64,000 nt of DNA from Candidatus Omnitrophota bacterium (GTDB lineage Bacteria; Omnitrophota; Gorgyraeia; 2-01-FULL-45-10). The position numbers and the translations under genes are program-made. Within the stretch, counting starts at the first letter, position 1; the number at the start of each line of letters is the position of its first letter. The DNA lies in assembly GCA_030695905.1 (NCBI GenBank), contig JAUYOL010000004.1, positions 2,874-66,873 on the forward strand, written 5' to 3'. The notes under the pieces are model-generated. The model was not told the DNA's origin. It was given only the letters and a program-made list of their open reading frames with translations, and ran no database searches. Of this stretch, positions 31,647-49,875 are shown in pieces.

Positions 31647-32092
31647 CCTGTCTGGTTTTGATAGCGTCGCTGGTTATCATAATTGACAGACTTGCCAAGT
31701 TTCTGGTATTCAACAATATGCTCGAAGGGCAGTCCGTAGAAATCTTGCCCAAGATTTTTCACATCACACTGGTGTTGAATACCGGTGCAGCCTTTGGATT
31801 ATTCAAAGACAAAAACCAATTCTTCATAGTCATGTCTTTCATCGTTGTCGCGCTTATATTTGCGTACGTATGGCTCGGCAAGCGCAAGGACCTCGTCAGC
31901 TTAAGCGCGCTGGGCCTTATTCTTGGCGGAGCGGCCGGCAACGTGATAGACCGCCTTATATTTGGCCATATTATAGATTTCCTGGATTTTCGCGTATGGC
32001 CCGTATTCAATGTGGCCGATTCATCAATAACTATTGGCGCTGTATTACTGGTTTTGAGGTTATTCTCCGGTAAAAAATGCTGTACTCAATAG
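31643..32092 (+). CDS. lspA: Lipoprotein signal peptidase II
   Basis: Has the conserved NTGAAFGLF and FNVADSSITIGAVLL motifs and 4 TM segments. Confidence 0.9.
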   Translation: MTCLVLIASLVIIIDRLAKFLVFNNMLEGQSVEILPKIFHITLVLNTGAAFGLFKDKNQFFIVMSFIVVALIFAYVWLGKRKDLVSLSALGLILGGAAGNVIDRLIFGHIIDFLDFRVWPVFNVADSSITIGAVLLVLRLFSGKKCCTQ

Positions 32093-33309
32093 GATTTTTT
32101 ATATTTTCACTGCTTTATCTGCCTACCCTTATCTTTAAGGGCAAGCTTCACGCGGATTTTGGCGAGAGGTTTGCCATATTTGATAAGATGAAGGAGAGGG
32201 CTCTGCTTTCCGGCAGGGACCGCATATGGATACAGGCGGTTAGTGTAGGCGAAGTCGCGCTTTGTAAGAGCTTTATACCGGTTTTGAAAGAAAAATTCCC
32301 GGATCGGGATATAGTCATTTCGACTATAACCAAGGCAGGGAATGACCTGGCCCGAAAAATTTTCGGCAAAGATGTTGTAATCATATATTTTCCTCTCGAT
32401 TTTAAGGCTATAGTTAGAAAAACGATAAGCCTGATTAAACCCGCTTTATATATAATGATAGAGACTGAGATATGGCCCAATCTTTTGGCGGAGCTTTCTT
32501 CGCGCGCTATATCTTCAGCGCTTATTAACGGCAGGATATCCGATCGTTCCATAGGAAAATACAGGTTCGCAAAGCCATTTTTGAAGAAGACCCTGGAAAG
32601 TATAAATATATTTTGTATGCAGGATAGCATAGATGCCGAGAGAATAATAGAATTGGGCGCGCCGAAGGAGAGGGTAAGGATAACGGGCAATATGAAATTC
32701 GATATAGAGCTTCCGGCAAATGTAAAAGATATCGAGGCGGTACGCGACCTGTTTGGGCTCAAAGCTGGCGAAGAGCTATTCGTAGCAGGGAGTACGCGCG
32801 AGGGCGAAGAAGAGATTGTTCTCGATGTATTTAATAGGCTTTTGGCCGATTTCCCGAATTTAAGGCTGCTCATAGCCCCAAGGCATATTGATAGGGCAGT
32901 CCAGATCGATAAGTTAATACAGACCCTGACCCCAGATTCTAAATCCCGGATTATATTGCTCGACACGATAGGCCATCTTAATGAGGCGTACTCTGTCGCA
33001 ACTATTGTTTTTGTAGGCGGCAGTCTTATAAAACACGGGGGGCATAATCCTATAGAGCCGGCATATTTTGCCAAGCCGATACTCTTCGGGCTTAATATGT
33101 TTAATTTTAAATATATCGCAGCCGTTTTTTTAAGGAACAAGGCCGCGCTGCAGGTTTTTAACGGTGAAGACCTTTACGAAAAATGTAAACTTCTTTTACG
33201 TGATGCCGCAGCAAGGGGCCTTTTGGGTAAAAATGCGAAGAAGACGATCGTTGAAAATGCCGGCGCGACGGGGAAAAATGTTATCGAAATCGCGGGAGTC
33301 TTGAAATGA
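32077..33309 (+). CDS. waaA: 3-deoxy-D-manno-octulosonic acid (Kdo) transferase
   Basis: N-terminal RIWIQAVSVGEV matches the Kdo transferase signature. It has a GT-B C-terminal domain and lies adjacent to lpxK. Confidence 0.88.
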   Translation: MLYSIGFFIFSLLYLPTLIFKGKLHADFGERFAIFDKMKERALLSGRDRIWIQAVSVGEVALCKSFIPVLKEKFPDRDIVISTITKAGNDLARKIFGKDVVIIYFPLDFKAIVRKTISLIKPALYIMIETEIWPNLLAELSSRAISSALINGRISDRSIGKYRFAKPFLKKTLESINIFCMQDSIDAERIIELGAPKERVRITGNMKFDIELPANVKDIEAVRDLFGLKAGEELFVAGSTREGEEEIVLDVFNRLLADFPNLRLLIAPRHIDRAVQIDKLIQTLTPDSKSRIILLDTIGHLNEAYSVATIVFVGGSLIKHGGHNPIEPAYFAKPILFGLNMFNFKYIAAVFLRNKAALQVFNGEDLYEKCKLLLRDAAARGLLGKNAKKTIVENAGATGKNVIEIAGVLK

Positions 33310-34343
33310 GGGACTTCATATATTCGTTAATGACCGATAAGAAGAATGGTTTTTTCTACGACATCTTTAAATTTAAGCTCTATCTGGTTTCGCTTATATA
33401 TGGTTTCGCTATAGCGGTCAGAAGAGTCTTTTATAAATTCGGCATATTTAAGATGCGTAAGGCGCCCCTTAAGGTTATAAGCGTCGGGAACATAACTTTA
33501 GGCGGTACGGGTAAGACGCCTTTCGTGGTGACACTGGGCCACATTTTAGAGTCGGAGCTTAAGAAGAACGCGTGTGTGCTTATACGCGGTTATGGCTGGG
33601 ACGAGCAGGCGATGCTGAAGAATAAACTCACCGATATACCGGTTCTTGTAGGCGAAGACAGGGCGCGCTCGGCTTTGAAAGCGGTTAAGCTTTATGGTTC
33701 AAATACAGCGATACTTGACGATGGATTTCAGCATTGGGAGCTTGGCCGGGATCTTGATATAGTGCTTGTCGATTCAAGGAATCCTTTCGGTAATTTGCAA
33801 TTATTTCCCAGGGGAGTATTAAGAGAGCCCAAAAAGGCTTTGCAGAGGGCTGACATTATAGTTTTTACGAAAACTGACGGAAAGAATATCAATTTGGAAA
33901 ATTTAAAGGCCGAGGCAGGCAATATAAACAGAACCGCTGTTTTTTTGGAAGCTGTTCATAAGCCGACTTATTTATATGAGAACAAAACTAGGATCACGCG
34001 CGATCTTTCTTATGTAAAGGGCAAGCGCGTTATCTTATTCTCAAGCATAGGCGATCCGTCGCATTTTGAAGAGACCGTCAGGGCCATGGGCGCGGAAGTG
34101 GTCGAGCACATAAAATTTACGGATCACCATAACTACAAGAAGAGCGACATAGAGCATATTTTAAAAAGATGCAGCGAAAGAAGTTTTGACTTCGTGCTTA
34201 CGACAGAAAAGGATATCGTGAAATTAAACAGGCTCGGGCTGTATATTGGATCCTATACAGTCATGGTTGTAGTGATAAACCTTGAAATAACGCTGGGGAA
34301 GGAGATCTTGATTGATAGACTCAATCGCCTCTATACTCGTTAG
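33306..34343 (+). CDS. lpxK: Tetraacyldisaccharide 4'-kinase
   Basis: VISVGNITLGGTGKTP is the LpxK P-loop. The gene overlaps waaA by 4 nt. Confidence 0.9.
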   Translation: MRDFIYSLMTDKKNGFFYDIFKFKLYLVSLIYGFAIAVRRVFYKFGIFKMRKAPLKVISVGNITLGGTGKTPFVVTLGHILESELKKNACVLIRGYGWDEQAMLKNKLTDIPVLVGEDRARSALKAVKLYGSNTAILDDGFQHWELGRDLDIVLVDSRNPFGNLQLFPRGVLREPKKALQRADIIVFTKTDGKNINLENLKAEAGNINRTAVFLEAVHKPTYLYENKTRITRDLSYVKGKRVILFSSIGDPSHFEETVRAMGAEVVEHIKFTDHHNYKKSDIEHILKRCSERSFDFVLTTEKDIVKLNRLGLYIGSYTVMVVVINLEITLGKEILIDRLNRLYTR

Positions 34344-36255
34344 AGGGCTGAATATCATATTTCATTTTATTCCAATAGAGTTCAACCTTTGGATAGGCAG
34401 GCGTATAGGTTCCGCTGCCTTCTTTATTAATAAGAAAAGGCGCATGATAGCCTACGCCAATCTTAAGGCAGCGTTCGCGAACGAGAAGCCCCCGAAAGAG
34501 TTGCGTGCGATCACTAAAAGAGTTTATATAAACCTCGTCCAAAGCTTTGCCGAGATCTTAAGCCTTACCAAGGTAAGTAAATCCTATGTGAATAAATATG
34601 TTGAAGTTGTAAATATGAACCGTATAGAGGACGCCGGGAAATCAGGCAGGGGCACCATACTTCTCACGGCTCACTACGGCGACTGGGAACTGTCGAGCCT
34701 GGTAAGCGCTATGAAGGGTTTTCCTATAACGGTCCTTGCCCGCGAGCAGAAGATGAAACGGCTTAATGAACTTTTAAACCGCCTCAGAGAGTCGAAGGGA
34801 TGTAAGGTTGTAAGGAAGGGGATGTCCACAAAGCTTATCTTCAAAGAACTTTATAAGAAGGATATGGTAGGGATATTGTCGGATCAGGATGCCGGCAAGA
34901 ACGGTACTTTTGTAAACTTTTTTGGCAGGCCAACATCGGCGCATGTCGGGCCTTTTGAAATAGCCAAGCATACGGATTCTATAATATTACCCAATTTTAT
35001 CGTAAGGACGGCCGGTCCATTTCATAAATTATACCTGGAAGATTACATAGATATGAGGGATGCCAAAACTCAGGAAGATGTGAAGGATAGTCTGCAGAAA
35101 TATATGTCTTTGCTGGAAAAGTACATCAGGCAGTATCCTGATCAGTGGTTATGGCTTCACAAGAGGTGGAAATCCACCCCAAAAAGGACCATCCTTGTTT
35201 TAAATGACGGCAAGGCGGGCCATCTGAACCAATCGCTTGCGGTAGCGCGCGAGATACAGAGGGCGAGGATGACCCAGGGATACAAAATAGAGGATACTTC
35301 AATAGTTACGGTGAGTGTTGAGTATAAAAACAAATTATTAAGACTTCTATTGGCATGTATTGTGCCCTTTGCAAGTTGGCGCTGTCAGGGCCGCATGTAT
35401 TGCTTGAGGATGTGCCTGAAGAAAGATTCTTACGAAAATTTAATGAAGACATACGCGGAATTTATAGTCTCCTGCGGTTCGAGCTTAGCTCCCGTGAATG
35501 TATTTATGAAAAAGGAAAACAACGCCAGGAATGTTGTAATTATGAAGCCGTGCCTTTTATTCGGTTTAAGAAAGTTTAATTTTATAATCGCGCCCAAACA
35601 TGACAGAATATGTGAACGTAAAAATGTTGTTATTACGACTTTAGCGCCCAATCTGGTGGACAGCCAGGCGCTGAAAGCCGCGGGAGAGAAATTGTCGGCC
35701 GGTGTGCGACTTGAAGGCAACAAGGTTATGGGGCTTCTGATAGGCGGCGATAATCCGGAGTTCAGGCTTTCGGGAGATTTATTAAAAAAAGTCATAAACG
35801 ATGTGCTCAAAGTTTGCGAATCGAATAACGCGGATCTGCTGGTAACGACTTCCAGGCGCACAAATAAAGAGCAGGAGTCGATTATAAAATCTATGTTACA
35901 GGGTAACTCCAGATGTAAACTGCTTGTAATAGCGAATGAGAGCAATCCAGAAGAGACGCTGACAGGCATACTGGCCTTAAGTAACGTCGCTATCGTTTCG
36001 GGCGAATCAATATCAATGATTTCCGAGGCGGTGAGTTCAGGTAAAAAGACAGTAGCTTTTGGCCTTAAGAAGAAGAAAAATTCTATTACAAAACACGAAC
36101 GTGTTCTCGAAAATCTGGCAAGAGATGGGTACATATCAATAGCCAGGGCCGGAGAGATGATATCGCTGGCCTCAAGAGCGCTAAAAGACACGTCGCCCGC
36201 GAAAAAGGTCGGAGATACGGACAAAATTTACGAAGCCATGAGGGCGCTCATATAA
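34312..36255 (+). CDS. Two-domain protein: N-terminal LpxL/HtrB-family lipid A acyltransferase fused to a C-terminal ELM1/GtrOC1-like putative glycosyltransferase domain (647 aa)
   Basis: Residues 1-290 have the lysophospholipid-acyltransferase HX4D-type motif (LTAHYGDWEL) and the LpxL fold. Residues 300-647 resemble the ELM1/DUF1022 family (KAGHLNQSLAVA ... LLIGGDNPEF ... VIANESNPEE). The C-terminal domain assignment is recalled and unverified. Confidence 0.65.
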   Translation: MIDSIASILVRGLNIIFHFIPIEFNLWIGRRIGSAAFFINKKRRMIAYANLKAAFANEKPPKELRAITKRVYINLVQSFAEILSLTKVSKSYVNKYVEVVNMNRIEDAGKSGRGTILLTAHYGDWELSSLVSAMKGFPITVLAREQKMKRLNELLNRLRESKGCKVVRKGMSTKLIFKELYKKDMVGILSDQDAGKNGTFVNFFGRPTSAHVGPFEIAKHTDSIILPNFIVRTAGPFHKLYLEDYIDMRDAKTQEDVKDSLQKYMSLLEKYIRQYPDQWLWLHKRWKSTPKRTILVLNDGKAGHLNQSLAVAREIQRARMTQGYKIEDTSIVTVSVEYKNKLLRLLLACIVPFASWRCQGRMYCLRMCLKKDSYENLMKTYAEFIVSCGSSLAPVNVFMKKENNARNVVIMKPCLLFGLRKFNFIIAPKHDRICERKNVVITTLAPNLVDSQALKAAGEKLSAGVRLEGNKVMGLLIGGDNPEFRLSGDLLKKVINDVLKVCESNNADLLVTTSRRTNKEQESIIKSMLQGNSRCKLLVIANESNPEETLTGILALSNVAIVSGESISMISEAVSSGKKTVAFGLKKKKNSITKHERVLENLARDGYISIARAGEMISLASRALKDTSPAKKVGDTDKIYEAMRALI

Positions 36256-36270
36256 AATTTTTCTCATGCT

Positions 36271-36471
36271 GCACGGCGGACCTTGCGGGATTCCACCTTC
36301 AGCGGACATAAATTTGGATTGGGCATCCAAATTTACTCGGAAAATTTTTGATGGCCGTCTAACCTGGCAACTATTATACAATTGCCCAGTTTGTCCGGCC
36401 GTTCTGGATCGCCAAAAGGAATCAAAATTTTTGACGCCGCTTCAGGCGGAATCCCGCAAGGTCCGCCTGTG
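36271..36471. repeat. GC-rich 201-nt structured element bounded by 35-nt imperfect inverted repeats (20-bp perfect core GGCGGACCTTGCGGGATTCC), with internal hairpins. Candidate ncRNA or MITE-like element.
   Basis: The left arm (36271-36305) pairs with the right arm (36437-36471). An internal hairpin AAATTTGGAT-tgggc-ATCCAAATTT lies at 36311-36334. Further complementarity includes TGGCAA/TTGCC and GGCCG/CGGCC. The only ORFs here are two mirror-image artefacts. Confidence 0.55.
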
Positions 36472-36803
36472 AAATGGGCGAAAAATTTTACGATCTGAGG
36501 CAGTTTAGGCCTAACCCTTTTGATCAAGAACAGCTCAGGCTAATATTAAGAGAGCAAGAAAAAATATTGAAAAAATAGTAAATGATAATTTATGATTTGG
36601 GTAGATTTGGCAGGTTGGGAAGCACAAAGGATTTTGTAAGTGGCCATTGTAAAACCTAAAATTATAGTTATGTAAGCACAATAAAAATGTTAGGTCTTTT
36701 GTAATGACGAAAAACGGTTATATTTAACATTTTTCTTATAAGATTTTTATCTTATTTGTGCGAACATAACGAGTTTTAGGTTTAAAGGAAGCACGAAAAG
36801 TTT

Positions 36804-38906
36804 ATGAACATATTACAGATATTACCATCACTGGAAGTTGGCGGGGTCGAGACCGGGACGATTGATCTGGCGAGGTACCTTGTAAAGAAATGCCACAAGG
36901 TGATCGTCATTTCGGGAGGCGGCCGGCTTGTAAGAGAGCTCGATAAGATGGGCGCGCGCCACTATACGTTACCGGTAGGGAAGAAGTCTATTTTTAATAT
37001 GATACGCATGGTTCGCGCGGTGGCCGATATCATAAAAAATGAAGATATCGATATCGTACATGTGCGCTCGCGCGTGCCGGCGCTTATAGCGTTTATAGCT
37101 TCCAGAATGACCAATCGTGTATTTATGACTACCGCTCATGGTTACTACAAAAAAAGTTTTATGAGTAGCGTAATGGGTTGGGGCAGATTCGTGATAGTGC
37201 CATCCAATATAATAGCTAAGCATATGGTAAGCGATTTTGGCGTGCCCCATGATCGCATACGTTTTATTCCCCGCGGCGTGGATCTGACAAGATTCAAATT
37301 CAGGAATCCTAAGACGCATTCCTCAAAGGGTTTTACCGTGGGGATGATATCAAGAATAACGCCTTTAAAAGGCCATGCCTATTTTATAAAAGCGATATCT
37401 CTTTTATATCGAAAGATCCCCAATCTTAAAGTTGTAATAGTAGGCAGCGCCCCAAAAGAAAAATACAAAGAGGACCTGGATCTGTTAGTAAGAAGGCTCG
37501 GCCTTGCAAATATTGTGCAGTTTGTGGGCGCCAAAGAAGATATCCCATCTGTAATGAAAGACCTGGATTGTCTTGTATCCGCTACAATCACCCCGGAAGC
37601 GTTCGGCAGGTCCATTGTGGAGGCACAGGCGTCCGGTGTACCGGTGGTTTCGACCAGAGTGGGCGGCGTTGTCGATATCATAGAGGATAATAAAACGGGC
37701 CTATTCTGTGACGCGCAGGACCCGCGCGATATGGCCGATAAGATATCGAGGCTTTACCAGGACAGAGCCTTATGGGAAGAGTTTGTGATCCAGGGCAGAA
37801 AGCGCGTGGAGGATAATTTTAATCTCGATCTTATGATGACCAAGACTATTAGCGTATATGAAGAAGCCTTGAAAAGTTTAAATATTCTGGTGATAAAATT
37901 AAGCGCGATAGGCGATGTTATATTAAGCACGCCTTCGCTTCGTTCAATACGCGCAAAACACAAGGACTCTGTGATAAAGGTTCTCGTTGGGCTCCAGGCC
38001 AAAGAAGTGTTGGATAGATGCCCGTATATAAATGACAGGATAATATGTGACTTTAAGGGCAAGAATAAAGGCTTTATTGGGCTATGGAGGTTGTCAGAGG
38101 AATTAAGGAAGGGCTGTTTTGATATAGTAATAGATCTGCAGAATAATAAAAAGAGCCACATACTTTCATTTTTGTCTATGGCGCCGCTTCGCTACGGTTA
38201 CGACAACGGAAAATTTTCTTTTCTATTGAACAAGAGGATAAAGGATGACGCGCCGTATCTGGATCCTATAGACCATCAGTTCAGGGTATTAAAGCTCGCG
38301 GGTATAAAACCTCTGGATAAACATCTGGAGATATGGCCTTCGCCTTCCGACGATGAAAAGGTAAGCGGTTTGCTCAATGAGAGCTGGATCAAATCAACGC
38401 AAAATATAGTAGGTATAAACGTGAGAGCCTCTTCGCGCTGGCTTTCTAAGAATTGGCCGGCTAAGTATATAGCCGAACTTTGTGACAGGCTCGCGAAAGA
38501 ATTCAACGTGCGCACAGTGCTTACAGGGACTAAGGATGATATCCCTTTCATAGAAAGGATAAGCCAGAACACTTCCTCGAAACCTATAGTGGCCGCAGGT
38601 AAGACAGGCATGCTTGAATTGGCGAGCCTTATAAAAAGATGCCGGGCTTATATAACGCCCGATTCCGCGCCTATGCACATCGCCTCGGCCGTAGGCACCC
38701 CATTTATAGGCTTGTTCGGCCCTACGGATCCGGCAAGGCATATAGCGCCATCAAAAAAATACGTAGTAATGAAGAAGGATCTAAAGTGCAGCCCATGCTA
38801 TAACCCGAACTGTTTGAAAAAAGTTAAATGCATGAAAGAGATAACGGTCGACGAGGTTTTTAAAGCTACCAAGGATATCTTAACCCAGAATGGCGCCGGA
38901 CAATGA
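36804..38906 (+). CDS. Bifunctional glycosyltransferase: N-terminal GT4 (GT-B, EX7E motif) fused to a C-terminal GT9 heptosyltransferase-like domain (700 aa)
   Basis: The N-terminal half has EAFGRSIVEAQASGVPVVSTRVGGVVDIIE, a GT4 EX7E region. The C-terminal half has ILVIKLSAIGDVILSTP and DSAPMHIASAVGTPFIGLFGPTDP, the GT9/WaaC-WaaF-WaaQ signatures. Confidence 0.8.
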   Translation: MNILQILPSLEVGGVETGTIDLARYLVKKCHKVIVISGGGRLVRELDKMGARHYTLPVGKKSIFNMIRMVRAVADIIKNEDIDIVHVRSRVPALIAFIASRMTNRVFMTTAHGYYKKSFMSSVMGWGRFVIVPSNIIAKHMVSDFGVPHDRIRFIPRGVDLTRFKFRNPKTHSSKGFTVGMISRITPLKGHAYFIKAISLLYRKIPNLKVVIVGSAPKEKYKEDLDLLVRRLGLANIVQFVGAKEDIPSVMKDLDCLVSATITPEAFGRSIVEAQASGVPVVSTRVGGVVDIIEDNKTGLFCDAQDPRDMADKISRLYQDRALWEEFVIQGRKRVEDNFNLDLMMTKTISVYEEALKSLNILVIKLSAIGDVILSTPSLRSIRAKHKDSVIKVLVGLQAKEVLDRCPYINDRIICDFKGKNKGFIGLWRLSEELRKGCFDIVIDLQNNKKSHILSFLSMAPLRYGYDNGKFSFLLNKRIKDDAPYLDPIDHQFRVLKLAGIKPLDKHLEIWPSPSDDEKVSGLLNESWIKSTQNIVGINVRASSRWLSKNWPAKYIAELCDRLAKEFNVRTVLTGTKDDIPFIERISQNTSSKPIVAAGKTGMLELASLIKRCRAYITPDSAPMHIASAVGTPFIGLFGPTDPARHIAPSKKYVVMKKDLKCSPCYNPNCLKKVKCMKEITVDEVFKATKDILTQNGAGQ

Positions 38907-40012
38907 AAGTACTGCATGTAAATACGCACATGAATATAGGCGGTATCGGCCGGTATATACTTTCATTGTGCAATGCGATGAAGAAGATGGGGATAGATTG
39001 TTCCGTTGCCTCAAGCGGAGGCAACCTGGAAGATGAGTTAAAAGAAAACGGTATAAAGCATAAGTACATAGGTATAAAGACAAAATTTGAATTTGGCCCG
39101 AAAGTTTTTAGCGCGGTATCGCCTTTAGCTAATATAATTATGGAGGAAGGCGTAAATTTGGTCCATGCGCACACAAGGGTTTCGCAAGTTGTCTCTTTCC
39201 TGGCATCACGTAAAGCAGAGGCTCATTATGTATCGACGTGCCATGGTTTTTTTAAACCCAAATTATCGAGAAAACTGTTTGATACATGGGGAGAGAGAGT
39301 AGTCGCGATAAGTGAGCCTGTAAAGGCCCATCTGGAAAGAGATTTTGGTATAAATTCAGAACGCATAGGGCTTATACATAACGGAGTCGATATGGATAAA
39401 TTCTCGAAAAATTTTTCGAACGACGAAATATCCAAACTAAAAAGATCAATAACGCTTAAAGAAGGCCCTGTAGTGGGGACTATTGGCAGGCTCTCCTCTG
39501 TTAAAGGCCAGAAATTTCTTATTGAGGCGATGAAGAACGTGATTTCTAAAAATAATCTGGCGCAATGTCTTATCATAGGTGAGGGGCCGGAAGAAGATGA
39601 ATTGAAAAAGTTGGCCGTTGATTTGGGCATAGAAAATAACGTAAAATTCGCGGGCCCTATCTATAAAGACGCTAATATGTATCTTGCATGCATGGATGTA
39701 TTTGTGCTGCCTTCGATAAAAGAGGGGCTGGGCCTTGCGCTGCTCGAGGCGATGGCCGCCGCAAGACCGTGCGTAGCATCAGATATAGGCGGAATAAGGG
39801 ATATAGTTAAGGACAGGGATAATGGCATGCTCGTCCCTGTGGCCGATATCAGCGCGATGGCAGATTCTATATCGAAACTTTTGAGTGATAAGGCCGCCGC
39901 GATGCGGCTTGGGCAAAATGGAAGAGAGTTTGTGAAAGAAAATTTCTCAATTACCGTTATGGCTGAAAAGATGAGCAGGCTCTACAGGGAGGTAGTAAGT
40001 GGCAAACAGTAA
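38903..40012 (+). CDS. GT4-family glycosyltransferase (369 aa)
   Basis: GT-B fold with an EX7E region (EGLGLALLEAMAAARPCVASDIGGIRDIV). It overlaps the upstream gene as ATGA. Confidence 0.8.
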   Translation: MKVLHVNTHMNIGGIGRYILSLCNAMKKMGIDCSVASSGGNLEDELKENGIKHKYIGIKTKFEFGPKVFSAVSPLANIIMEEGVNLVHAHTRVSQVVSFLASRKAEAHYVSTCHGFFKPKLSRKLFDTWGERVVAISEPVKAHLERDFGINSERIGLIHNGVDMDKFSKNFSNDEISKLKRSITLKEGPVVGTIGRLSSVKGQKFLIEAMKNVISKNNLAQCLIIGEGPEEDELKKLAVDLGIENNVKFAGPIYKDANMYLACMDVFVLPSIKEGLGLALLEAMAAARPCVASDIGGIRDIVKDRDNGMLVPVADISAMADSISKLLSDKAAAMRLGQNGREFVKENFSITVMAEKMSRLYREVVSGKQ

Positions 40013-40793
40013 GAAGCGCATATTATTAGTTGCCGCTACTACAATAGCAGTCCTGTTAATTGCCTCGATAGGTTATGTTGATGTAAAATCTTCCTCGGTC
40101 GTTCCGATATTAATGTACCATTCTTTTGAGGTTGAGGATCCCGGAACCACGCCCAATGTTACGCCCGAAATATTCCGTAAGCAGATAGAGTTTTTTGTTA
40201 AACATAAATATAATATAGTAGGTCTGGACAAGGTTGTAGTTTATATGACAAAAAAAGAAAAGATGCCTTCAAGGGCAGTCGCTATAACAGTTGATGACGG
40301 CTTGCGCAGTTTTTATAAAAATGCTTATCCTATATTAAAAGAGTACGGTGTGCATGCCGCGCTCTTTATGGCTGCGGATCGCGTAGGAGAGCCGGGTTAT
40401 ATGAGCTGGAAAGAGTTGCGCGAAGTCTCCGATTCAGGCTTAGTTATGGTTGAAAGCCACACGGCGTCGCATCCATGGCTTCCGACTATTTCTGTTGATG
40501 AAAAAAAACTGCATGAAGAAATTATAGGCTCTAAGGAGATTTTTGAGTACGGGCTACGAAAAAAAGTGGACTATATATGTTATCCTAACGGCGGATTCAA
40601 TGACCTGGTAAAGGAGACGGCAAGATTGGCAGGGTACGAGGGTGCCTTTACAACCAATCCGGATAAGAAAAGCGCGATCAATGATATATACGCGATAAGA
40701 CGGCTTAAGATGTCATCGTCGTCCAGGACCCCTCTGGTGATTTGGGGCAAGGTAAACAGATTTTATGCTTGGTGGAAGGAGACCAGATGGTAG
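39999..40793 (+). CDS. Polysaccharide deacetylase (CE4 / NodB homology domain) with N-terminal TM anchor
   Basis: Has the NodB motifs TVDDG, a catalytic His/Asp pattern (ESHTASHP) and YPNGGFN. An N-terminal TM is present. Confidence 0.75.
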   Translation: MANSKKRILLVAATTIAVLLIASIGYVDVKSSSVVPILMYHSFEVEDPGTTPNVTPEIFRKQIEFFVKHKYNIVGLDKVVVYMTKKEKMPSRAVAITVDDGLRSFYKNAYPILKEYGVHAALFMAADRVGEPGYMSWKELREVSDSGLVMVESHTASHPWLPTISVDEKKLHEEIIGSKEIFEYGLRKKVDYICYPNGGFNDLVKETARLAGYEGAFTTNPDKKSAINDIYAIRRLKMSSSSRTPLVIWGKVNRFYAWWKETRW

Positions 40794-41812
40794 GCGGTAG
40801 TAAAAAAATACTTATAGTAAACGTGAACTGGATAGGGGACGTAATATTTTCGACTCCGTTTATAAAGACCATCCGCGACGCCTATCCGGATAGCTATATA
40901 GCCTGCCTTTTACATCCGCGCTGTATCGATGTGTTGAAAGACAACCCGCGTATCGACGAGATAATAATCTACGATGAAGAAGGCGCGCACAAAGGCCTTA
41001 TCGGTAAATTAAAATTAATAGCTTACTTAAGAAAGAAGAGATTTGATATAGCGTTTATACTGCACAGGTCATTTACAAAAGCGCTTATAACGTTTTTAGC
41101 TGCGGTTAAAGAGCGGGTAGGATATCCTACCAAGAAGCGCGGCATGTTTTTAACTAAACTTGTGGAGATTTCGGATGAAGAGATCCACAAGGTAGAGTAT
41201 TTTCTTAATTTAGCCAGAGCATACGGGATAGCGGTAGGCGATGTCGCGTATGAATTTTTCGTAAAACAGTCAGACCGGCAAAAGATAAAGCAGTTTTTAA
41301 ATGAAAATGGTATAGGCGATAAAGATCTTCTAATAGTGCTTTGCCCGGGCGGTAACTGGAATCCTAAAAGGTGGCCAAGGGAAAATTTCGCGCAATTAGC
41401 CGATATATTTATAGAAAGACTTAACGCGAAGGTGGTAATATCCGGAGCGAAAAAGGATATCGCGCTGGCAGAAGATATAGGAAGATCAATGAAGAATAGG
41501 CCGGTCATTTCCTGCGGCAAAACAGATTTAAAAGGGCTGGGAGCTTTGATGGAGCGCGCAAACCTGGTAGTGGCAAATGATACGGGTCCTATGCACATTG
41601 CCGTAGCGATGAAAAGTAATGTTATAGCGTTATTCGGGCCGACATCCGCTGGGCTTACGGGCCCTTACGGGAAGGGCAGTTATAACGTAATCTCGAAAAA
41701 CGAAGAATGCGACGTCCCTTGTTATGATATGACATGCACAGATAACCGTTGTATGGCGCTTATAAAACCGGAAGACGTGTTTAAGGAAGCCCTAAAATTA
41801 ATTAAACCATGA
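40787..41812 (+). CDS. GT9 ADP-heptose:LPS heptosyltransferase family protein (paralog 1; start at ATG 40787 after GGAAGGAG)
   Basis: Has ILIVNVNWIGDVIFSTP and NDTGPMHIAVAMKSNVIALFGPT motifs. Confidence 0.85.
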   Translation: MVGGSKKILIVNVNWIGDVIFSTPFIKTIRDAYPDSYIACLLHPRCIDVLKDNPRIDEIIIYDEEGAHKGLIGKLKLIAYLRKKRFDIAFILHRSFTKALITFLAAVKERVGYPTKKRGMFLTKLVEISDEEIHKVEYFLNLARAYGIAVGDVAYEFFVKQSDRQKIKQFLNENGIGDKDLLIVLCPGGNWNPKRWPRENFAQLADIFIERLNAKVVISGAKKDIALAEDIGRSMKNRPVISCGKTDLKGLGALMERANLVVANDTGPMHIAVAMKSNVIALFGPTSAGLTGPYGKGSYNVISKNEECDVPCYDMTCTDNRCMALIKPEDVFKEALKLIKP

Positions 41813-42786
41813 AAATAGATAAAGATCAGATAAAGCGAATACTCGTTATAACTTTGAGCAACATAGGCGATATTATTCTTACCACGCCTGTTATAAGGAC
41901 GCTTTCAAAAGAGTTTCCATCTTCAAGAATAGATGTGATGGTAGGGCCAAATGGCAGAGATATTTTTAATAAGGATCCGCGGATCTTTAAGCTGGTCATA
42001 TATGATAAGCATATATCTATAGTCGAAAAGAGAAGGCTGCAGTTAAAATTAAAGAGGTTAAAATATGATCTCGTAGTCGATCTAAAGAATACGGCCTTTC
42101 CTATTTTGCTGATGCCAAAGTATAGAACCAGCTCTATGCAGACATTTCCCAAAAGCATTATCCATAAAAAAGAAAAACACCTGTATAGGCTTCACCCGCT
42201 TGGGATGCAGAATATCAAGGAAGATTCATATATTTACATTCCGCAAGAGGATGAAAGATATGTGCAGAACCTGCTGGCGGAGTGTAATATATCCGATCCT
42301 ATAGTTGTTATCAATCCGGGCGCTAAGAGCCACCTTAAAAGATGGACGGCCGAGGGATTTGCCAGTGTCGCGGATAGGCTGGCCAGCGAAAGCAGTGCGA
42401 GCATTGTCTTCATAGGCATGGGAGAAGACGGCGGGGTTGTTAGCGAAGTAACTAGAAGGATGAAGGGCAAATTTTATAACTTTACGAACAAGACCAATAT
42501 AAGGCAGTTGGCGGCATTATTGAAAAGAGCGAAATTGCTGATAACAAACGATAGTGCGCCATTACATCTGGGTTGCACTATGGGAACAAGGGTATTGGCC
42601 ATATTCGGCCCAACCGATCCTAAAAAATACGGCCCAACGGGAGAGCTTGACGCGGTTATCAATAAAAAGTTGTTTTGTTCCCCCTGCGAAAGTGCTGTAT
42701 GTAAGTATAATCACGAATGTATGAAACTGATTTCGCCGGACGAGGTCTATGACTTTGCAAAGATGATGGTGGAAGGATATGAGTAA
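41809..42786 (+). CDS. GT9 heptosyltransferase family protein (paralog 2)
   Basis: Has ILVITLSNIGDIILTTP and NDSAPLHLGCTMGTRVLAIFGPTDP motifs. It overlaps the upstream gene as ATGA. Confidence 0.85.
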   Translation: MKIDKDQIKRILVITLSNIGDIILTTPVIRTLSKEFPSSRIDVMVGPNGRDIFNKDPRIFKLVIYDKHISIVEKRRLQLKLKRLKYDLVVDLKNTAFPILLMPKYRTSSMQTFPKSIIHKKEKHLYRLHPLGMQNIKEDSYIYIPQEDERYVQNLLAECNISDPIVVINPGAKSHLKRWTAEGFASVADRLASESSASIVFIGMGEDGGVVSEVTRRMKGKFYNFTNKTNIRQLAALLKRAKLLITNDSAPLHLGCTMGTRVLAIFGPTDPKKYGPTGELDAVINKKLFCSPCESAVCKYNHECMKLISPDEVYDFAKMMVEGYE

Positions 42787-43840
42787 AATCCCAAATCCCA
42801 AATCCCAAATTACAAAGTACAAAAAAATTCTTATTGTCAGGACGGATAAGATAGGGGACCTTGTTCTATCCACACCTGTTATAAAGGCCGTGCGCGACGC
42901 GTATCCGGATAGCTACATAGCGGCGGTCGTCAGGCCTTACGCGCATGAAGTAATTAAGGGCAATCCGTATCTAAACGAGGTTATAACATATGAGAAGTCA
43001 AAAAAAGGCATGAGCATCTTAAGTGACCTCAAATTTATATTAGGGTTAAGAAAAAAGAAATTCGATCTGGCGTTTATACTTCACCCAAAAAACAGGACGC
43101 ACATAATAATGTTTCTGGCCGGAATTCCCAAAAGGATAGGCTACGACAAAAAGCTTGGGATTCTTTTGACGAAGAGGATCCCGCATCTGAAGGAATATGG
43201 GCTGAAACACGAAATAGACTATACGCTCGATATAGTGCGTTATGCGGGTATTGAACCAAAAGAGAAGACCCTGCATGTGACCGCGGATGGGGCCGCAGAA
43301 AAAAAAGTGGACGATATTTTTGCCAAGAGCGGCATATCCAAGGACAATATGGTGATAGCGGTACATCCCGGCGCAAGTTGTCTTTCAAAAAAATGGAAAG
43401 TAGAGCGTTTTGCGAAGGTAGCGGATTCACTCGCCGAAAAGTATAATGCGAAGATTGTTATAATAGCAGGGTCTGTGGACAAAAAACTTGGAGACAGGAC
43501 GGCGGAGCTGATGATTTCCGGCAATGTGAACCTGTCGGGCAAGACCACCGTATCGGATGTCGTAAGCGTGTTAAAGCGTTCGAACCTATTTATATCGAAT
43601 GATTCAGGCCCAGTACATATAGCCTGCGCTGTGGGAACGCCGACAATATCTATATTCGGACGAAATGACAGAGGGCTTTCGCCGCAGCGCTGGAGGCCCA
43701 TAGGCAAGAAAGACATAGCTTTGCATAAGGATGTCGGATGCAAATTATGCCTTGCCCATAACTGCAAGCGCGGCTTCGCGTGCCTGGAAGCTATAAGCGT
43801 AGATGACGTGCTTGCCGCCGCGCAAACAATATTGCGTTGA
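42779..43840 (+). CDS. GT9 heptosyltransferase family protein (paralog 3). A 7-nt x3 tandem repeat sits at its 5' end.
   Basis: Has ILIVRTDKIGDLVLSTP and NDSGPVHIACAVGTPTISIFG motifs. The N-terminal codons KIPNPKSQI are encoded by (AAATCCC)x3. Confidence 0.85.
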   Translation: MSKIPNPKSQITKYKKILIVRTDKIGDLVLSTPVIKAVRDAYPDSYIAAVVRPYAHEVIKGNPYLNEVITYEKSKKGMSILSDLKFILGLRKKKFDLAFILHPKNRTHIIMFLAGIPKRIGYDKKLGILLTKRIPHLKEYGLKHEIDYTLDIVRYAGIEPKEKTLHVTADGAAEKKVDDIFAKSGISKDNMVIAVHPGASCLSKKWKVERFAKVADSLAEKYNAKIVIIAGSVDKKLGDRTAELMISGNVNLSGKTTVSDVVSVLKRSNLFISNDSGPVHIACAVGTPTISIFGRNDRGLSPQRWRPIGKKDIALHKDVGCKLCLAHNCKRGFACLEAISVDDVLAAAQTILR

Positions 43841-43881: not shown

Positions 43882-44826
43882 ATGTATTTAATGCAAAAGA
43901 GAGTAGACCTATCCAAAATAAGGACCATACGCCTTGATACTCGCAAGTGCAAGGTGTCCGTGAAGGACTTTGCGCACCTTGTAAAAAAGGGGTCGAGTTT
44001 TAAAGATTTTTACAATTCATTGCCCGCTATTCTCGCCGCCAATAATTTTAAAACTGTAGTAGACGATATCATTGCCGCCCACAAAAAGAAGAAGATGGTT
44101 ATATTTATGATGGGCGCGCATGTAATAAAGTGCGGCCTGTCGCCGTTGGTCATAGACCTGATGAAGCGTGGTGTTGTAAGAGCAGTCGCGTTAAATGGAG
44201 CCGGCATAATACATGATACCGAGGTCGCTATGATAGGCAGGACGAGCGAAGATGTCGGTGAGGGCATAGTTGACGGCTCGTTCGGCATGGCGGAAGATAC
44301 AGCTTCGTTTATCAACGGCTCGATAAACTATGGGTTTAGAAACGGCGTTGGTATAGGAGAGGCCCTTGGCAGCCGAATATTGAAGTCAAAATTTTCGTGC
44401 AAAGGTTTAAGCATTTTGGCGGAAGGTTACAGATTAGGCATACCGGTAACGGCTCATGTAGCGATAGGAACAGACATAATACACCAGCATCCCAGTGCGG
44501 TAGGGATGGCTATAGGAGAGGGGTCGCTTCTTGACTTCAAAAACTTTATCTACAGCGTTTCAAAGCTTGATGGAGGCGTGGCCGCCAATATCGGTTCGGC
44601 CGTGATTTTACCCGAAGTATTCTTAAAAGCGGTAACAGTCGCCAGAAATTTAGGATACAAGGTAGATAAATTTACGACGGCAAGTTTTGATATGATTAGC
44701 CAGTACAGGGTGCATCAGAATGTCATATCCAGGCCGACATCAAAGGGCGGCAAAGGGTACAGCATTATAGGGCATCATGAAATAATGATTCCGCTGCTTC
44801 ACAGATCGATAATAGAAAAGATATAA
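43882..44826 (+). CDS. Deoxyhypusine synthase-like family protein (314 aa), function unknown in this context
   Basis: [42 protein letters not shown] aligns by eye with eukaryotic DHS [55 protein letters not shown] resembles HNIPVFSPALTDG. The similarity is recalled and unverified. Confidence 0.4.
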   Translation: [314 protein letters not shown]

Positions 44827-44830
44827 AATT

Positions 44831-45838
44831 ATGGAAAAACAGAATTTCAACAAGCTGAAACAGATAGTATCAAATTTTAAGGACGCGAACGTTCTGGTCA
44901 TAGGCGACCTTATTCTTGACGAATTTATATGGGGAGACGTTTCCCGCATATCTCCCGAAGCGCCTGTGCCGGTGGTGTGGGTCAGACGTGAAAGTTTCAT
45001 GCCCGGAGGGGCGTCAAATGTCGCGAATAATTTGAGAAGTTTGGGTGCGCACACCTTCATAGCCGGAGTGATCGGCGATGATGAAAGGGGCGCTATACTC
45101 AAGGGAGAGCTTGAGCAGAAAGGCATCGATACCGGCGGTATAGTCGTGGATGAGTCCAGGCCGACCACTCTAAAGACGCGCGTTGTCGCCCATCACCAGC
45201 AGGTTGTTAGAATAGATAAGGAGAAAAAGGACGCGTTAAGCGACGTGATGATATCGCGTATCATCGATTATACTAAAAAGATAATAGACAGTATAGACGC
45301 GGTTATAATCGAGGACTATGGCAAAGGAGTCATAACTCCTAAGCTGCTGAAGAGTATAGTGCCGTTAGCCAGATCGCGAAAAAAGATAATATCTGTCGAC
45401 CCCAAAGAGGAACATCTGAAATATTATCAGGGGATAAGCCTTATCACTCCGAATAATCATGAGGCGTCCAAGGCCGTTGGCTTTGAAATAAAAGATAACG
45501 CGACATTAAAAAAGGCCGGTGAGGCCATGCTCAAAAAATTCAAATGCAAAATAGCCCTGATAACACTGGGCGAGAATGGTATGGCGGTTTTTCAGAAGGA
45601 TAAACCTATGAAGCATATACCTACGGTGGCGCAGGAAGTATTCGATGTGTCCGGCGCGGGAGATACAGTGATAGCCTCTTATACGCTTGCGCTCGCGTCC
45701 GGAGCGAGTCCTGTGCAGGCGGCGCATATTTCTAACTGCGCGGGCGGCATTGTTGTCGGCAAGGTAGGTATCGCGGTTGTAACGCCGGATGAATTGATAG
45801 ATAGAGTAAGAAAAGAATCCGGAATAATAAATAATTAA
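44831..45838 (+). CDS. hldA: D-glycero-beta-D-manno-heptose-7-phosphate kinase (HldE domain I only; PfkB carbohydrate kinase)
   Basis: Has VLVIGDLILDEFIWGDVSRISPEAPVPVV and DVSGAGDTVIA (PfkB signature 2). There is no C-terminal cytidylyltransferase-like domain II. Confidence 0.85.
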   Translation: MEKQNFNKLKQIVSNFKDANVLVIGDLILDEFIWGDVSRISPEAPVPVVWVRRESFMPGGASNVANNLRSLGAHTFIAGVIGDDERGAILKGELEQKGIDTGGIVVDESRPTTLKTRVVAHHQQVVRIDKEKKDALSDVMISRIIDYTKKIIDSIDAVIIEDYGKGVITPKLLKSIVPLARSRKKIISVDPKEEHLKYYQGISLITPNNHEASKAVGFEIKDNATLKKAGEAMLKKFKCKIALITLGENGMAVFQKDKPMKHIPTVAQEVFDVSGAGDTVIASYTLALASGASPVQAAHISNCAGGIVVGKVGIAVVTPDELIDRVRKESGIINN

Positions 45839-45859: not shown

Positions 45860-46606
45860 GTGAAAGCTATAGGGGTAATACCCGCAAGATGGGGTTCCAC
45901 AAGATTTGAAGGTAAGGTACTGGCGGATCTTCTGGGTAAGCCGGTGATACAGCATGTTTGGGAGAGCGCGAAAAAGGCGAAGACGCTGGACGACCTTGTT
46001 GTTGCGTGTGATGATGAGCGCATAATGAAGGTTGTGCAGGAGTTCGGCGGGAAAGCGGTCTATACGTCCGTCGACCAGCCGTCCGGCACCGACCGGCTCG
46101 CGGAAGTAGTGAACCCTCTGGACGTGAAGATAGCGGTAAATATACAGGGCGATGAGCCGCTTGTTAAGCCCATCATGATAGATAATCTCGTGATGGCTCT
46201 TGAAGATGAGAAGACCGCGCAGATGGCGACTATGGTAAAGAAGATAGAAGACGAAGAAGAGCTTACGAATTCAAATGTGGTAAAGGCTATCTTTGATAAG
46301 AATGGATACGCGATATATTTTTCGCGTTACGCTATACCGTATAATAGGACAAACAGCGTCGATAAAGATAAGAAGCCGGTATATTATAAACATATAGGCA
46401 TGTACGCGTTTACCAAGGACTTTTTATTCACATTCAGAAATCTGCCTAAATCATCTCTCGAAAACGCGGAAAAACTTGAACAGCTGCGCGTGCTGGAGTA
46501 TGGTTACAAGATAAAGATAGTTGAAACGAAGTTCGATACAATCGGTGTTGATACGCATGAAGATCTGTTGAGAGTAAAAGAGATGATGTTGTCTGAAAGA
46601 TACTAA
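45860..46606 (+). CDS. kdsB: 3-deoxy-manno-octulosonate cytidylyltransferase (CMP-Kdo synthetase)
   Basis: IGVIPARWGSTRFEGK is the nucleotidyltransferase motif. The length is as expected for KdsB. Confidence 0.9.
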   Translation: MKAIGVIPARWGSTRFEGKVLADLLGKPVIQHVWESAKKAKTLDDLVVACDDERIMKVVQEFGGKAVYTSVDQPSGTDRLAEVVNPLDVKIAVNIQGDEPLVKPIMIDNLVMALEDEKTAQMATMVKKIEDEEELTNSNVVKAIFDKNGYAIYFSRYAIPYNRTNSVDKDKKPVYYKHIGMYAFTKDFLFTFRNLPKSSLENAEKLEQLRVLEYGYKIKIVETKFDTIGVDTHEDLLRVKEMMLSERY

Positions 46607-46618
46607 AGGTAAAATATA

Positions 46619-47443
46619 ATGCAGTCTACCAAAGAGATAAAGATAGGCAATGTAAAGATAGGGGCGGGTAATCCGCTTGTCCTTATCGCGGGGCCATGTG
46701 TTATAGAATCCGAATCAAGCGCCGTAAGGCACGCGAAGGCGTTAAAAGATGTAACGAGGCGGCTTGGAGTGCCTTTTATATTCAAATCAAGTTACGATAA
46801 AGCGAATAGATCCTCCGTGAATTCATTCAGGGGCCCCGGACTTAAGAAGGGATTGAAGATACTGCATAAGATAAAAGAGGAATTGGCCCTACCCATCCTT
46901 TCCGATGTACACTGCAAGGAAGAGGTTAGGGAAGCTTCAAAGGTGCTGGACGTAATCCAGATACCGGCTTTTCTCTCAAGACAGACGGATCTGATATTGG
47001 CGGCGGCCAATACAGGCAAAGTAGTCAATATAAAGAAGGGGCAGTTCTTAGCGCCCTGGGACATGCGCAATGTAGTTAAGAAGATAGAGTCGAGCGGAAA
47101 CAAAAAGATAATTCTTACCGAAAGGGGAGTAAGCTTCGGTTATAATAATCTTGTAAGTGATTTCAGGTCTGTGCTGATAATGAAAGAGATGGGTTATCCG
47201 GTTGTATACGACGCGACTCACTCTGTCCAGATGCCGGGGGGGTTAGGGGATAAATCCGGCGGTGAAAGCAAATTCATACCATATCTATCGATGGCCGCGG
47301 TTGCCTGCGGTGTCGATGGTATCTTTATAGAGGTACACGAAAATCCTTCAAAGTCATTGAGTGACGGTCCCAATATGGTAAAGCTCTCCGAGCTTGAAAA
47401 AATACTGATGAAGTTAAAGAAGATAGAAAGGGCGGCAAGATAA
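46619..47443 (+). CDS. kdsA: 2-dehydro-3-deoxyphosphooctonate aldolase (Kdo-8-P synthase)
   Basis: Has LIAGPCVIES of the DAHP/KDO8P synthase family. The gene is 274 aa. Confidence 0.9.
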   Translation: MQSTKEIKIGNVKIGAGNPLVLIAGPCVIESESSAVRHAKALKDVTRRLGVPFIFKSSYDKANRSSVNSFRGPGLKKGLKILHKIKEELALPILSDVHCKEEVREASKVLDVIQIPAFLSRQTDLILAAANTGKVVNIKKGQFLAPWDMRNVVKKIESSGNKKIILTERGVSFGYNNLVSDFRSVLIMKEMGYPVVYDATHSVQMPGGLGDKSGGESKFIPYLSMAAVACGVDGIFIEVHENPSKSLSDGPNMVKLSELEKILMKLKKIERAAR

Positions 47444-48402
47444 TGGCTAAAAGAATAGCCAAAAATGTCCTTACGATAGAACGCGACGCTTTATCTGATC
47501 TGATAAAGAGGATAGACTCCGGTTTTGAAAAGGCTGTAAACGCCTTGTATAAAACAAAAGGGCGCGTGATAGTCACGGGAATGGGCAAGCCCGGTTTTAT
47601 CGCGCAGAAGATATCGGCAACACTCTCTTCTACCGGCACACCTTCGCTGTATCTGCATCCGGCAGAAGCGTTGCACGGCGACTTAGGTAGAGTGACGAAG
47701 GAAGATATTATACTGGCGCTTTCAAATAGCGGCGAGACGGATGAAATAATCAAATTTTTACCTATTGTGAAGAAGATAGGCGCGAAATTGATCGCTATGG
47801 TCGGAAATACAAAATCCACACTCGCGAAGAACGCGGATTATATTATAAATACCTCGGTAAAGAGAGAGGCGTGTTCGTTAGGACTGGCTCCCACAACATC
47901 GACCACAGCAATGCTCGCCATGGGAGACGCTCTTGCGGTAGCCCTGCTTGATAAAAAAGGTTTTAAGGAGAATGATTTTGCTTTCTTTCACCCGGGAGGG
48001 ATACTGGGCAAGAGGTTATTGTTAAGCGTAGGCGATATCATGAGGAAGGGCAGCGATAACCCTATAGTTAACGAGAATTGCCCTGTCAAAAGAGTTTTGC
48101 TTGCTATAACAAAGGCACGCGCGGGAAGCGCAAGCGTGGTTGATTTTAAGGGTAAGCTGATCGGAATATTTACCGACGGTGACTTAAGAAGGCACATAGA
48201 AGGCCAACCCGATCTTATTAATAAAAAAGTCAGGGACGTCATGACTAAAAATCCGGTAACTATAAGCAAAGACAGGCTGGCGGCGGAAGCCTTTGATATA
48301 CTCCGATCAAAAAAGATAGACGAAATTCCGGTTGTCGATAACAAAAAGCGGCCTGTTGGATTGTTAGATGTGCAGGATCTGCTTAAAGCAGGGCTCGTAT
48401 GA
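47443..48402 (+). CDS. kdsD: Arabinose-5-phosphate isomerase (SIS domain plus tandem CBS)
   Basis: Has the SIS motif (VIVTGMGKPGFIAQKISATLSSTG) and two C-terminal CBS domains. Confidence 0.88.
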   Translation: MAKRIAKNVLTIERDALSDLIKRIDSGFEKAVNALYKTKGRVIVTGMGKPGFIAQKISATLSSTGTPSLYLHPAEALHGDLGRVTKEDIILALSNSGETDEIIKFLPIVKKIGAKLIAMVGNTKSTLAKNADYIINTSVKREACSLGLAPTTSTTAMLAMGDALAVALLDKKGFKENDFAFFHPGGILGKRLLLSVGDIMRKGSDNPIVNENCPVKRVLLAITKARAGSASVVDFKGKLIGIFTDGDLRRHIEGQPDLINKKVRDVMTKNPVTISKDRLAAEAFDILRSKKIDEIPVVDNKKRPVGLLDVQDLLKAGLV

Positions 48403-49874: not shown

Positions 49875-49875
49875 A

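Follow-up and report, generated by a model that had tools for sequence, protein, structure and literature searches.

A fused GT4-GT9 glycosyltransferase in the lipopolysaccharide gene cluster of an Omnitrophota bacterium

Glycosyltransferases (GTs) of family GT9 are inverting enzymes that use ADP-heptose as donor and an Asp as general base; those of family GT4 are retaining enzymes with a nucleoside diphosphate (NDP)-sugar donor and the EX7E motif. The textbook GT4 enzyme of lipopolysaccharide (LPS) core assembly, WaaG, a glucosyl- or GalNAc-transferase, follows the heptosyltransferases and acts on Hep II. WaaC and WaaF, the E. coli heptosyltransferases, are stand-alone proteins without a 4-Cys motif, in contrast to the GT9 described here, which is fused to a GT4 and is one of four paralogous GT9s in the same cluster. 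It is encoded by a gene of Candidatus Omnitrophota bacterium that lies in a stretch of 64,000 nucleotides from contig JAUYOL010000004.1 (assembly GCA_030695905.1), the whole of which is called the window below. This GT4-GT9 gene is a genuine single gene with two complete glycosyltransferase modules, and we consider it likely, from its sequence and setting, that the product is a bifunctional, two-headed LPS-core glycosyltransferase, using ADP-heptose plus an NDP-hexose.

Of the solved structures, the closest to the GT4 half is PDB 7MI0 from Rickettsia africae (about 45% identity over the full module, E 4e-58), with which it has the GGVE, R/K and EX7E motifs in common. That protein, of about 385 aa, belongs to a Rickettsiales family of stand-alone GT4s that is well conserved and has no name; the R. 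canadensis gene of the family has rpsD and a UbiA gene as neighbours, and neither a GT9 gene nor a lipid A gene lies next to it. The closest solved GT9 is a structural-genomics entry from Veillonella parvula (3TOV), a stand-alone protein of 349 aa from the Negativicutes that is about 27% identical to the fused GT9 and has no GT4 part. WaaG of E. coli and P. aeruginosa is of the same CAZy family and fold class as the fused GT4, and the P. aeruginosa structure 8B62 is found by Foldseek at E 2.9e-13, as a generic fold match. Precedents for fusions in LPS and capsule pathways are the bifunctional heptose kinase/adenylyltransferase HldE and the multi-GT capsule synthases (8QOY). The latter gives a weak multi-module fold match to the fusion, its modules and chemistry being different, and the HldE model matches in part the HldA encoded in the window, which is itself not fused.

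No description of a GT4/GT9 fusion architecture was found in the literature searched, including searches on Omnitrophica with heptosyltransferase and on CP070780, nor was any paper citing PDB 7MI0 found there; the titles and abstracts seen on Omnitrophota and LPS held nothing relevant. To our knowledge there is no LPS chemistry on record for this uncultured phylum. The protein has already been deposited, and each of its domains is an ordinary representative of a well-known family; what appears to be new is a variant of architecture.

The fusion gene and its relatives

The gene and its parts are as follows.

36804..38906, + strand: GT4-GT9 fusion gene, a single uninterrupted open reading frame (ORF) of 700 aa plus stop, with an ATG start
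36804..37874, + strand: GT4 module, retaining-type GT-B, aa 1-357
36840-36851, 37137-37139, 37353-37370 and 37596-37622, + strand: GT4 motif sites, respectively GGVE, H112, R184/K189 and EX7E with E265/E273 (EAFGRSIVE)
37875..37880, + strand: junction 'SL', aa 358-359
37881..38882, + strand: GT9 module, heptosyltransferase-type GT-B, aa 360-693
37914-37916, 38448-38456, 38661-38678 and 38715-38732, + strand: GT9 motif sites, respectively D371, K549/W551, DSAPMH (D620-H625) and FGPTDP
38787..38831, + strand: C-x2-C-x4-C-x5-C motif (C662, C665, C670, C676) in the C-terminal part of the GT9

A preliminary description of this stretch, made from its letters alone, had put a GT4 and a GT9 domain on one in-frame polypeptide, and both full modules do lie on one 700-aa ORF within an LPS-core context. 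The ORF, 36804..38906, runs without a stop or change of frame, including the junction near 37875-37880; a check for either around 37850 had been proposed. Its stop codon, TGA, shares bases with the ATG of the GT4 gene that follows (ATGA, 38903-38906), as happens in many relatives too. A 100% identical protein (P0001) has been deposited at NCBI, on a 105-kb contig, as 'MAG: lipopolysaccharide heptosyltransferase II [Candidatus Omnitrophota bacterium]', MAG standing for metagenome-assembled genome.

A search of one genome per GTDB species gave 115 relatives, of which 80 were kept; these loci are titled Omnitrophota or Omnitrophica, or belong to MAGs automatically labelled 'uncultured Planctomycetia', and three are from single-cell genomes. 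All 80 match residues 1 to about 695 at 42-76% identity, and both halves stand in a single uninterrupted ORF of 692-740 aa in 74 of them. The six exceptions are three contig ends (L005, L060, L079), two broken copies (L037, L054) and a trivial mismatch of end coordinates (L064). The ORF of the broken copies (L037 6001-8159 and L054 1527-3616) stops after 539 or 613 aa, with the GT9 part off-frame or partly missing, which may reflect a frameshift, a pseudogene or an assembly error.

Beyond these loci, more than 120 clusters (90% identity level) of 695-720 aa have the same Pfam set, down to 64% identity, and an exhaustive HMMER pass over 1.84 billion representatives gave about 50 colinear GT4-to-GT9 clusters (50% identity level), about 700 aa long and with identities as low as about 25-30%. 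When a divergent member served as the query, the names returned were all of Omnitrophota, including Candidatus Aceula (Omnitrophota according to NCBI), save for one MAG labelled Margulisiibacteriota. The window protein fits the Omnitrophota fusion family as we define it in this analysis: about 690-740 aa, GT4 followed by GT9, a fixed junction with no linker, and a place between lpxL-ELM1 and a second GT4 gene. The fusion is a phylum-wide marker of the Omnitrophota and a compact target, one protein with two predicted activities.

The public names given to these proteins (P0001, P0115, P0467, P0498 and others) are one-sided and inconsistent, ranging over 'lipopolysaccharide heptosyltransferase II', 'glycosyltransferase family 9 protein' and 'GT4 family glycosyltransferase PelF', and each covers only half of the protein.

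The two modules and their junction

The three Pfam families that had been proposed for a domain search are all well above their curated cut-offs: PF13439 (Glyco_transf_4) at aa 12-163 with 99.4 bits against 28.5, PF00534 (Glycos_transf_1) at aa 165-334 with 123 bits against 26.4, and PF01075 (Glyco_transf_9) at aa 428-671 with 122.1 bits against 22, the last covering profile positions 2-242 of 247. The motifs quoted in the preliminary description were correctly read and placed, namely EAFGRSIVE at aa 265-273, ILVIKLSAIGD with D371, and DSAPMH...FGPTDP at aa 620-643. For the GT4 half, the EX7E motif with both Glu, the Arg/Lys pair and the N-terminal Gly-rich loop (G13-G14) are all present in the window protein, and G13, G14, E16, H112, R184, K189, E265 and E273 are invariant in 76 of 76 full-length proteins; of these, G13-G14, R184, K189, E265 and E273 are taken to be equivalent to functional residues of PimA and WaaG. 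The fold of this half in the AlphaFold2 (AF2) model, compared by Foldseek, matches 7MI0 (TMt 0.85, root-mean-square deviation (rmsd) 2.9) and also BshA, MshA and PimA.

The GT9 half is aligned end to end (aa 360-693) by the NCBIfam heptosyltransferase II model TIGR02195, with 155.2 bits against a cut-off of 134.6. Its D371, K549, D620 and H625 align with D13, K192, D261 and H266 of E. coli WaaC, so that the catalytic and ADP-heptose residues of that enzyme are kept, and all four are invariant in the 76 full-length proteins. The best solved match is 3TOV, both by sequence (E 2.4e-32) and by fold (TMt 0.89, rmsd 2.7); the likeness to E. coli WaaF/RfaF (1PSW), which lies in the GT-B fold (Foldseek TMt 0.82) as well as in the TIGR02195 match, comes with 28% identity and 92 bits, compared to 76 bits for WaaQ and 19% and 35 bits for WaaC. 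Among themselves the cluster's four GT9 modules share 29-35% identity, and with E. coli WaaC they share 19-23%. Assignment of the fused GT9 as heptosyltransferase I (HepI) was considered and rejected, given a TIGR02193 score of 71.9 against 185.3, no match to NF008204, and the 19% identity to WaaC.

All four GT9s of the cluster share the 4-Cys motif near the C-terminus, which is absent from E. coli WaaC, WaaF and WaaQ. The four Cys (C662, C665, C670 and C676) are invariant in 76 of 76 fusion orthologues, and the region is of low to medium confidence (pLDDT) in the AF2 model; the motif is possibly metal-binding or structural.

No linker separates the modules: in the AF2 secondary structure the last GT4 helix (aa 341-357) is followed by two residues and then by the first GT9 beta-strand (aa 360-364). 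The junction (VYEEALKxxNILVIK) is without insertions or deletions in 22 of 22 homologues down to 64% identity, and 75 of the 76 full-length proteins have a Y352-to-D371 spacing of 20 residues. The whole-chain AF2 model has a pLDDT of 83.8, and no solved chain found by Foldseek spans both halves, the best query-normalised TM being 0.47.

The GT4 half is slightly the more conserved across orthologues, with a mean identity of 57.2% compared to 54.0% for the GT9 half and the higher value in 65 of 75. Because the active-site residues are invariant in 76 of 76 proteins and the GT4 half is if anything the more conserved, both modules appear to be under selection as enzymes.

The LPS gene cluster and the proposed function

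The gene stands in a cluster of LPS genes, all on the + strand:

32077-33309, + strand: WaaA, transferase of 3-deoxy-D-manno-octulosonic acid (Kdo)
33306-34343, + strand: LpxK
34312-36255, + strand: LpxL-ELM1 fusion, 647 aa, with a lipid A late acyltransferase domain of LpxL type (PF03279) at aa 9-287 and ELM1/PF06258 at aa 302-627
38903-40012, + strand: GT4b
39999-40793, + strand: polysaccharide deacetylase
40742-41812, + strand: GT9b
41809-42786, + strand: GT9c
42779-43840, + strand: GT9d
43882-44826, + strand: GSU2086-family protein (NCBIfam NF052581, 418 bits; no Pfam match)
44831-45838, + strand: HldA, heptose-7-phosphate kinase (TIGR02198, 399.6 bits against a cut-off of 345)
45860-51393, + strand: KdsB, KdsA, KdsD, KdsC, a second LpxL, an LptC/A-like protein and LptB

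According to tblastn searches against the 80 loci, the order WaaA, LpxK, LpxL-ELM1, fusion, GT4b, (deacetylase), GT9b, GT9c, GT9d is kept phylum-wide, and the synteny continues to HldA and KdsB across the phylum; the genes downstream of the LPS cluster are housekeeping genes. LpxL-ELM1 is full length in related loci and normally adjoins the GT4-GT9 gene there, with which it is probably translationally coupled in the relatives. Its ELM1 domain is a putative glycosyltransferase, going by the NCBI family name ELM1/GtrOC1; a literature search on GtrOC1/ELM1 returned papers on yeast and mouse Elm1 only.

The proposed enzyme would act at the cytoplasmic face of the inner membrane. Its GT9 module would transfer heptose from ADP-heptose with inversion, D371 serving as the general base as in WaaC, and its GT4 module would use an NDP-sugar and the EX7E pocket to add a hexose or hexosamine in alpha linkage, with retention; the target of both would be the Kdo-lipid A inner core as it grows, and their steps probably adjoin. 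Being fused would set a 1:1 stoichiometry and hold both active sites on one membrane-associated scaffold, which would work beside the LpxL-ELM1 fusion protein encoded directly upstream. The acceptor of the fused GT4, unlike that of WaaG, may not be heptose. That the two steps are strictly consecutive, as the preliminary description proposed, we hold with less confidence than the bifunctional LPS-core assignment itself. The GT4-GT9 gene ties the uncharacterised 7MI0-type GT4 family, found also in Rickettsiales, to heptosyltransferase-dependent LPS core assembly, and, taken with its neighbour LpxL-ELM1, likewise a fusion, it suggests that the enzymes of the inner core work as physical complexes. 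Pathway neighbours are commonly fused in evolution.

Several observations weigh against the bifunctional LPS-core assignment. HldA is the only enzyme of the ADP-heptose pathway encoded within the 64-kb window, GmhA, GmhB, HldC and HldD not being found there, and two divergent orthologues (L081, L092) lie outside LPS clusters. The GT4 half is above no NCBIfam equivalog cut-off, the best models being of exopolysaccharide (EPS) type and well below threshold, with partial matches to EpsE, stp2 and PelF (88 bits against a cut-off of 100); orthology to WaaG was rejected, and the half is not to be filed as a WaaG orthologue, because it has no BLASTP similarity to E. coli WaaG. As for the GT9 half, none of the cluster's GT9 modules reaches the HepI cut-off, and GT9b (183.3 bits) and GT9d (146.2 bits) also exceed the TIGR02195 cut-off of 134.6. 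The heptosyltransferase II label is not discriminating, because two paralogues in the same cluster pass its model as well; the NCBI name is not a secure step assignment, and on sequence grounds the fused GT9 is not assignable to Hep I, II or III. The predicted TM score (pTM) of the whole-chain model, 0.82 over four Rossmann domains, suggests that the modules are placed in a defined way relative to each other and is only a proxy for fixed inter-module geometry. Finally, catalytic residues have been lost in some positional orthologues, so a non-catalytic role applies in at least some lineages.

The alternative that survives best is that both modules are active on the LPS core in separate steps, the fusion serving co-expression, stoichiometry or complex formation; we regard this as possible, though clearly the less probable course. 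The cluster encodes at least seven GT modules (ELM1, two GT4 and four GT9), which leaves room for such an arrangement, and fusions of other kinds elsewhere suggest opportunistic joining of neighbours. These include a GT4-GT9-GT9 protein of 1081 aa (P0268), GT9-GT9 proteins (P0357, and P0360 from Wallbacteria), an Omnitrophota protein of 1416 aa with GT4, polysaccharide deacetylase and GT4 modules (P0327), and, among relatives, GT4-GT4 tandems and one protein with three GT4 modules; a 671-aa GT9-only product (L093 12022-14037) is probably GT9-GT9 by its length. The proteins with other module fusions are P0268, P0281, P0287, P0292, P0294, P0308, P0319, P0321, P0327, P0357 and P0360. Fusion of core-GT modules is recurrent, and the earlier remark that heptosyltransferases are normally stand-alone, broadly true, has to allow for the GT9-GT9, GT4-GT9-GT9 and GT4-GT4 fusions that metagenomes also hold. 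Apparent fusions in the reverse order, GT9 then GT4, proved by Pfam to be tandems of GT4-GT4, three GT4 or GT9-GT9, and the exhaustive search showed no true GT9-to-GT4 order.

Stand-alone counterparts of the modules also exist. Those of the GT4 (P0303, P0309, P0322) score 276-303 bits to the fused GT4 compared to about 160 to GT4b, and that of the GT9 (P0300) scores 304 bits to the fused GT9 type compared to 177. L090 and L091 have the order GT9 (d-like), ELM1, GT4 with overlapping gene ends, which gives the same ELM1-to-GT4 adjacency as in the window without the fusion. The GT4 counterpart of L090 adjoins ELM1 and a GT9d-like gene rather than a counterpart of the fused GT9, which again favours separate steps. 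The two fused halves as neighbouring separate genes, in the strict Rosetta-stone sense, were looked for and not found, the neighbouring GT9 of L090 being GT9d-like and the conserved adjacency being that of ELM1 and GT4. Against separate steps, the GT4-to-GT9 pairing and the junction without a linker are stable phylum-wide down to about 30-40% identity, which exceeds what co-expression by itself needs.

A second alternative turns on orthologues that have lost their catalytic residues. In four proteins of 25-32% identity (P0284, P0286, P0302, P0350) key residues are lost in both halves: in the GT4, GGVE has become SYD, and neither the R184/K189 motif nor the first Glu of EX7E is left; in the GT9, none of the GD, KxW, DSAPMH and FGPTD motifs survives, nor does any of the four Cys. 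In P0262 the loss is confined to the GT4 residue set. P0284 (L093 7001-9091) and P0262 (L094 1140-3278) hold the exact operon slot of the window gene, with its length and the linker-less junction kept. By sequence, these positional orthologues are probable pseudo-glycosyltransferases. Since the fold is kept without catalytic residues in some lineages, there is a hint of a non-catalytic, scaffolding role alongside catalysis, and the degenerate orthologues offer a natural test of such a role for glycosyltransferases of this kind. One might go further and picture an assembly line for the LPS core in which the GT4-GT9 protein is the rigid core scaffold, bound physically to the upstream LpxL-ELM1 protein and kept in some lineages as a conserved pseudo-glycosyltransferase. 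We think this unlikely; if true, it would link late lipid A acylation to core glycosylation.

Less probable again is that only one module works, the other persisting in a structural or scaffolding role, in membrane or complex assembly. The degenerate orthologues speak for it, whether the GT4 half alone (P0262) or both halves are affected, inasmuch as length, junction and operon slot are retained without catalysis. The window protein, by contrast, keeps every catalytic and donor-binding residue, as do all the 75 other full-length species representatives in both halves, and the GT4 half is if anything the better conserved by the mean identities given above; both observations speak for selection on the two activities.

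Equally doubtful is a target other than LPS, be it exopolysaccharide or capsule, a glycolipid, an alpha-glucan, or a protein as with TibC-type heptosyltransferases. The EPS-type partial matches of the GT4 half, the name 'PelF' given by NCBI to some orthologues, and the two divergent orthologues outside LPS clusters are in keeping with such a target, as is a stand-alone GT4 counterpart (45% identity) encoded 20 bp downstream of GlgC in a closed genome of 1.43 Mb (CP070780.1; L084 3725-6089). That GlgC, a glucose-1-phosphate adenylyltransferase, is bona fide (589.5 bits against 537), and its locus also holds a copy of the palindromic element described below. ADP-glucose as the GT4 donor was considered on this account and set aside as a weak lead only, a single case that does not recur in L087 or L090, and the GlgC linkage is not seen in other informative contexts. 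A non-LPS target is further opposed by the phylum-wide place of the fusion gene among lpxL-ELM1, GT4 and GT9 genes, waaA, lpxK, hldA, kdsBADC and lpt genes, in frames that overlap or nearly abut, and by the GT9 half, which is above the LPS heptosyltransferase II cut-off, the fused protein having no match to the TibC/Aah model.

An artificial join of adjacent GT4 and GT9 genes by a sequencing or assembly error near 37875, which the preliminary description had named as the finding that would overturn the fusion and to which the metagenome-assembled origin of the window and the few relatives with broken ORFs (L037, L054) might lend some colour, has virtually no chance of being right and is already refuted by the comparative data, the same colinear ORF recurring in 74 of the 80 species-level genomes, which are independent, stem from many studies and include three single-cell ones, and the same layout in the 50%-identity clusters, with the junction spacing identical in all but one of the full-length proteins and its flanking residues conserved.

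The upstream gap, its palindromic element and neighbouring features

Two features lie between LpxL-ELM1 and the fusion gene in the window:

36256..36803, no strand: long intergenic gap of 548 bp, AT-rich
36268..36479, + strand: palindromic multi-helix structured element of about 200 nt, with a 31-nt inverted repeat at its bounds

In the preliminary description the core operon opens with the fusion gene, which a long promoter region rich in AT precedes. The AT-rich gap of 548 bp is real, with a GC content of 0.378 overall and 0.30 in its 3' part outside the inserted element, compared to 0.443 for the window. The claim to first place is not supported by comparison: the gene follows lpxL-ELM1 in a same-strand unit that reaches back at least to waaA, and the corresponding gap in 72 related loci is 14.5 bp at the median and never above 475 bp, that of the window being the largest, with a value of -1 (adjacent or overlapping genes) in 14 loci. 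The conserved transcriptional unit most likely starts upstream, at or before waaA. A local or secondary promoter in the gap of this genome is possible; five sigma-70-like hexamer pairs were found there compared to 1.6 expected from shuffles. The 548 bp held no terminator-like site after lpxL-ELM1 and no convincing small ORFs.

The palindromic element folds with -100 kcal/mol (z = -6.1). Its pairing is kept in 90.5% of cells of a five-genome alignment, compared to 31-48% in slid controls, and compensatory double changes occur in 22 of 64 pairs, internal hairpins included, compared to 1-6 in slid controls; none of 500 shuffles reaches the observed value. A covariance model found 10 copies (about 170-250 nt) in about 1.08 Mb of loci, all in gaps between mapped or called genes and in either orientation: ahead of waaA, in the gap from lpxL-ELM1 to the fusion gene, behind GT9d, and at one further place. 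The copies other than that of the window are:

L006 1013-1225: palindromic element
L010 5761-5973, - strand: palindromic element
L008 13082-13292: palindromic element
L030 13229-13439: palindromic element
L018 13109-13277, - strand: palindromic element
L007 1509-1677, - strand: palindromic element
L037 5722-5973: palindromic element
L011 1609-1762, - strand: palindromic element
L084 1429-1593: palindromic element

Rfam has no family for the element at the gathering threshold, with chance-level matches only at E up to 1. It may be akin to small palindromic mobile repeats of the ERIC or Correia type. Because it recurs at other sites and in other orientations in other Omnitrophota genomes, the long gap of the window is best explained, at least in part, by insertion.

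Some further features of the window were seen in passing. The GSU2086-family protein (43882-44826), encoded between the last GT9 gene and hldA, has the same position in several related loci. The LptC/A-like product (49876-50667, + strand; 263 aa) has an LptC-like match at aa 43-128 and an LptA/LptD_N-like match at aa 165-250, and could be a fusion of LptC with LptA, or else an Lpt bridge protein with two domains. Far upstream, at 3448-3649 and 4790-5174, lie tRNA-Met (CAT), tRNA-Val (CAC) and a class A bacterial RNase P RNA (207.6 bits).

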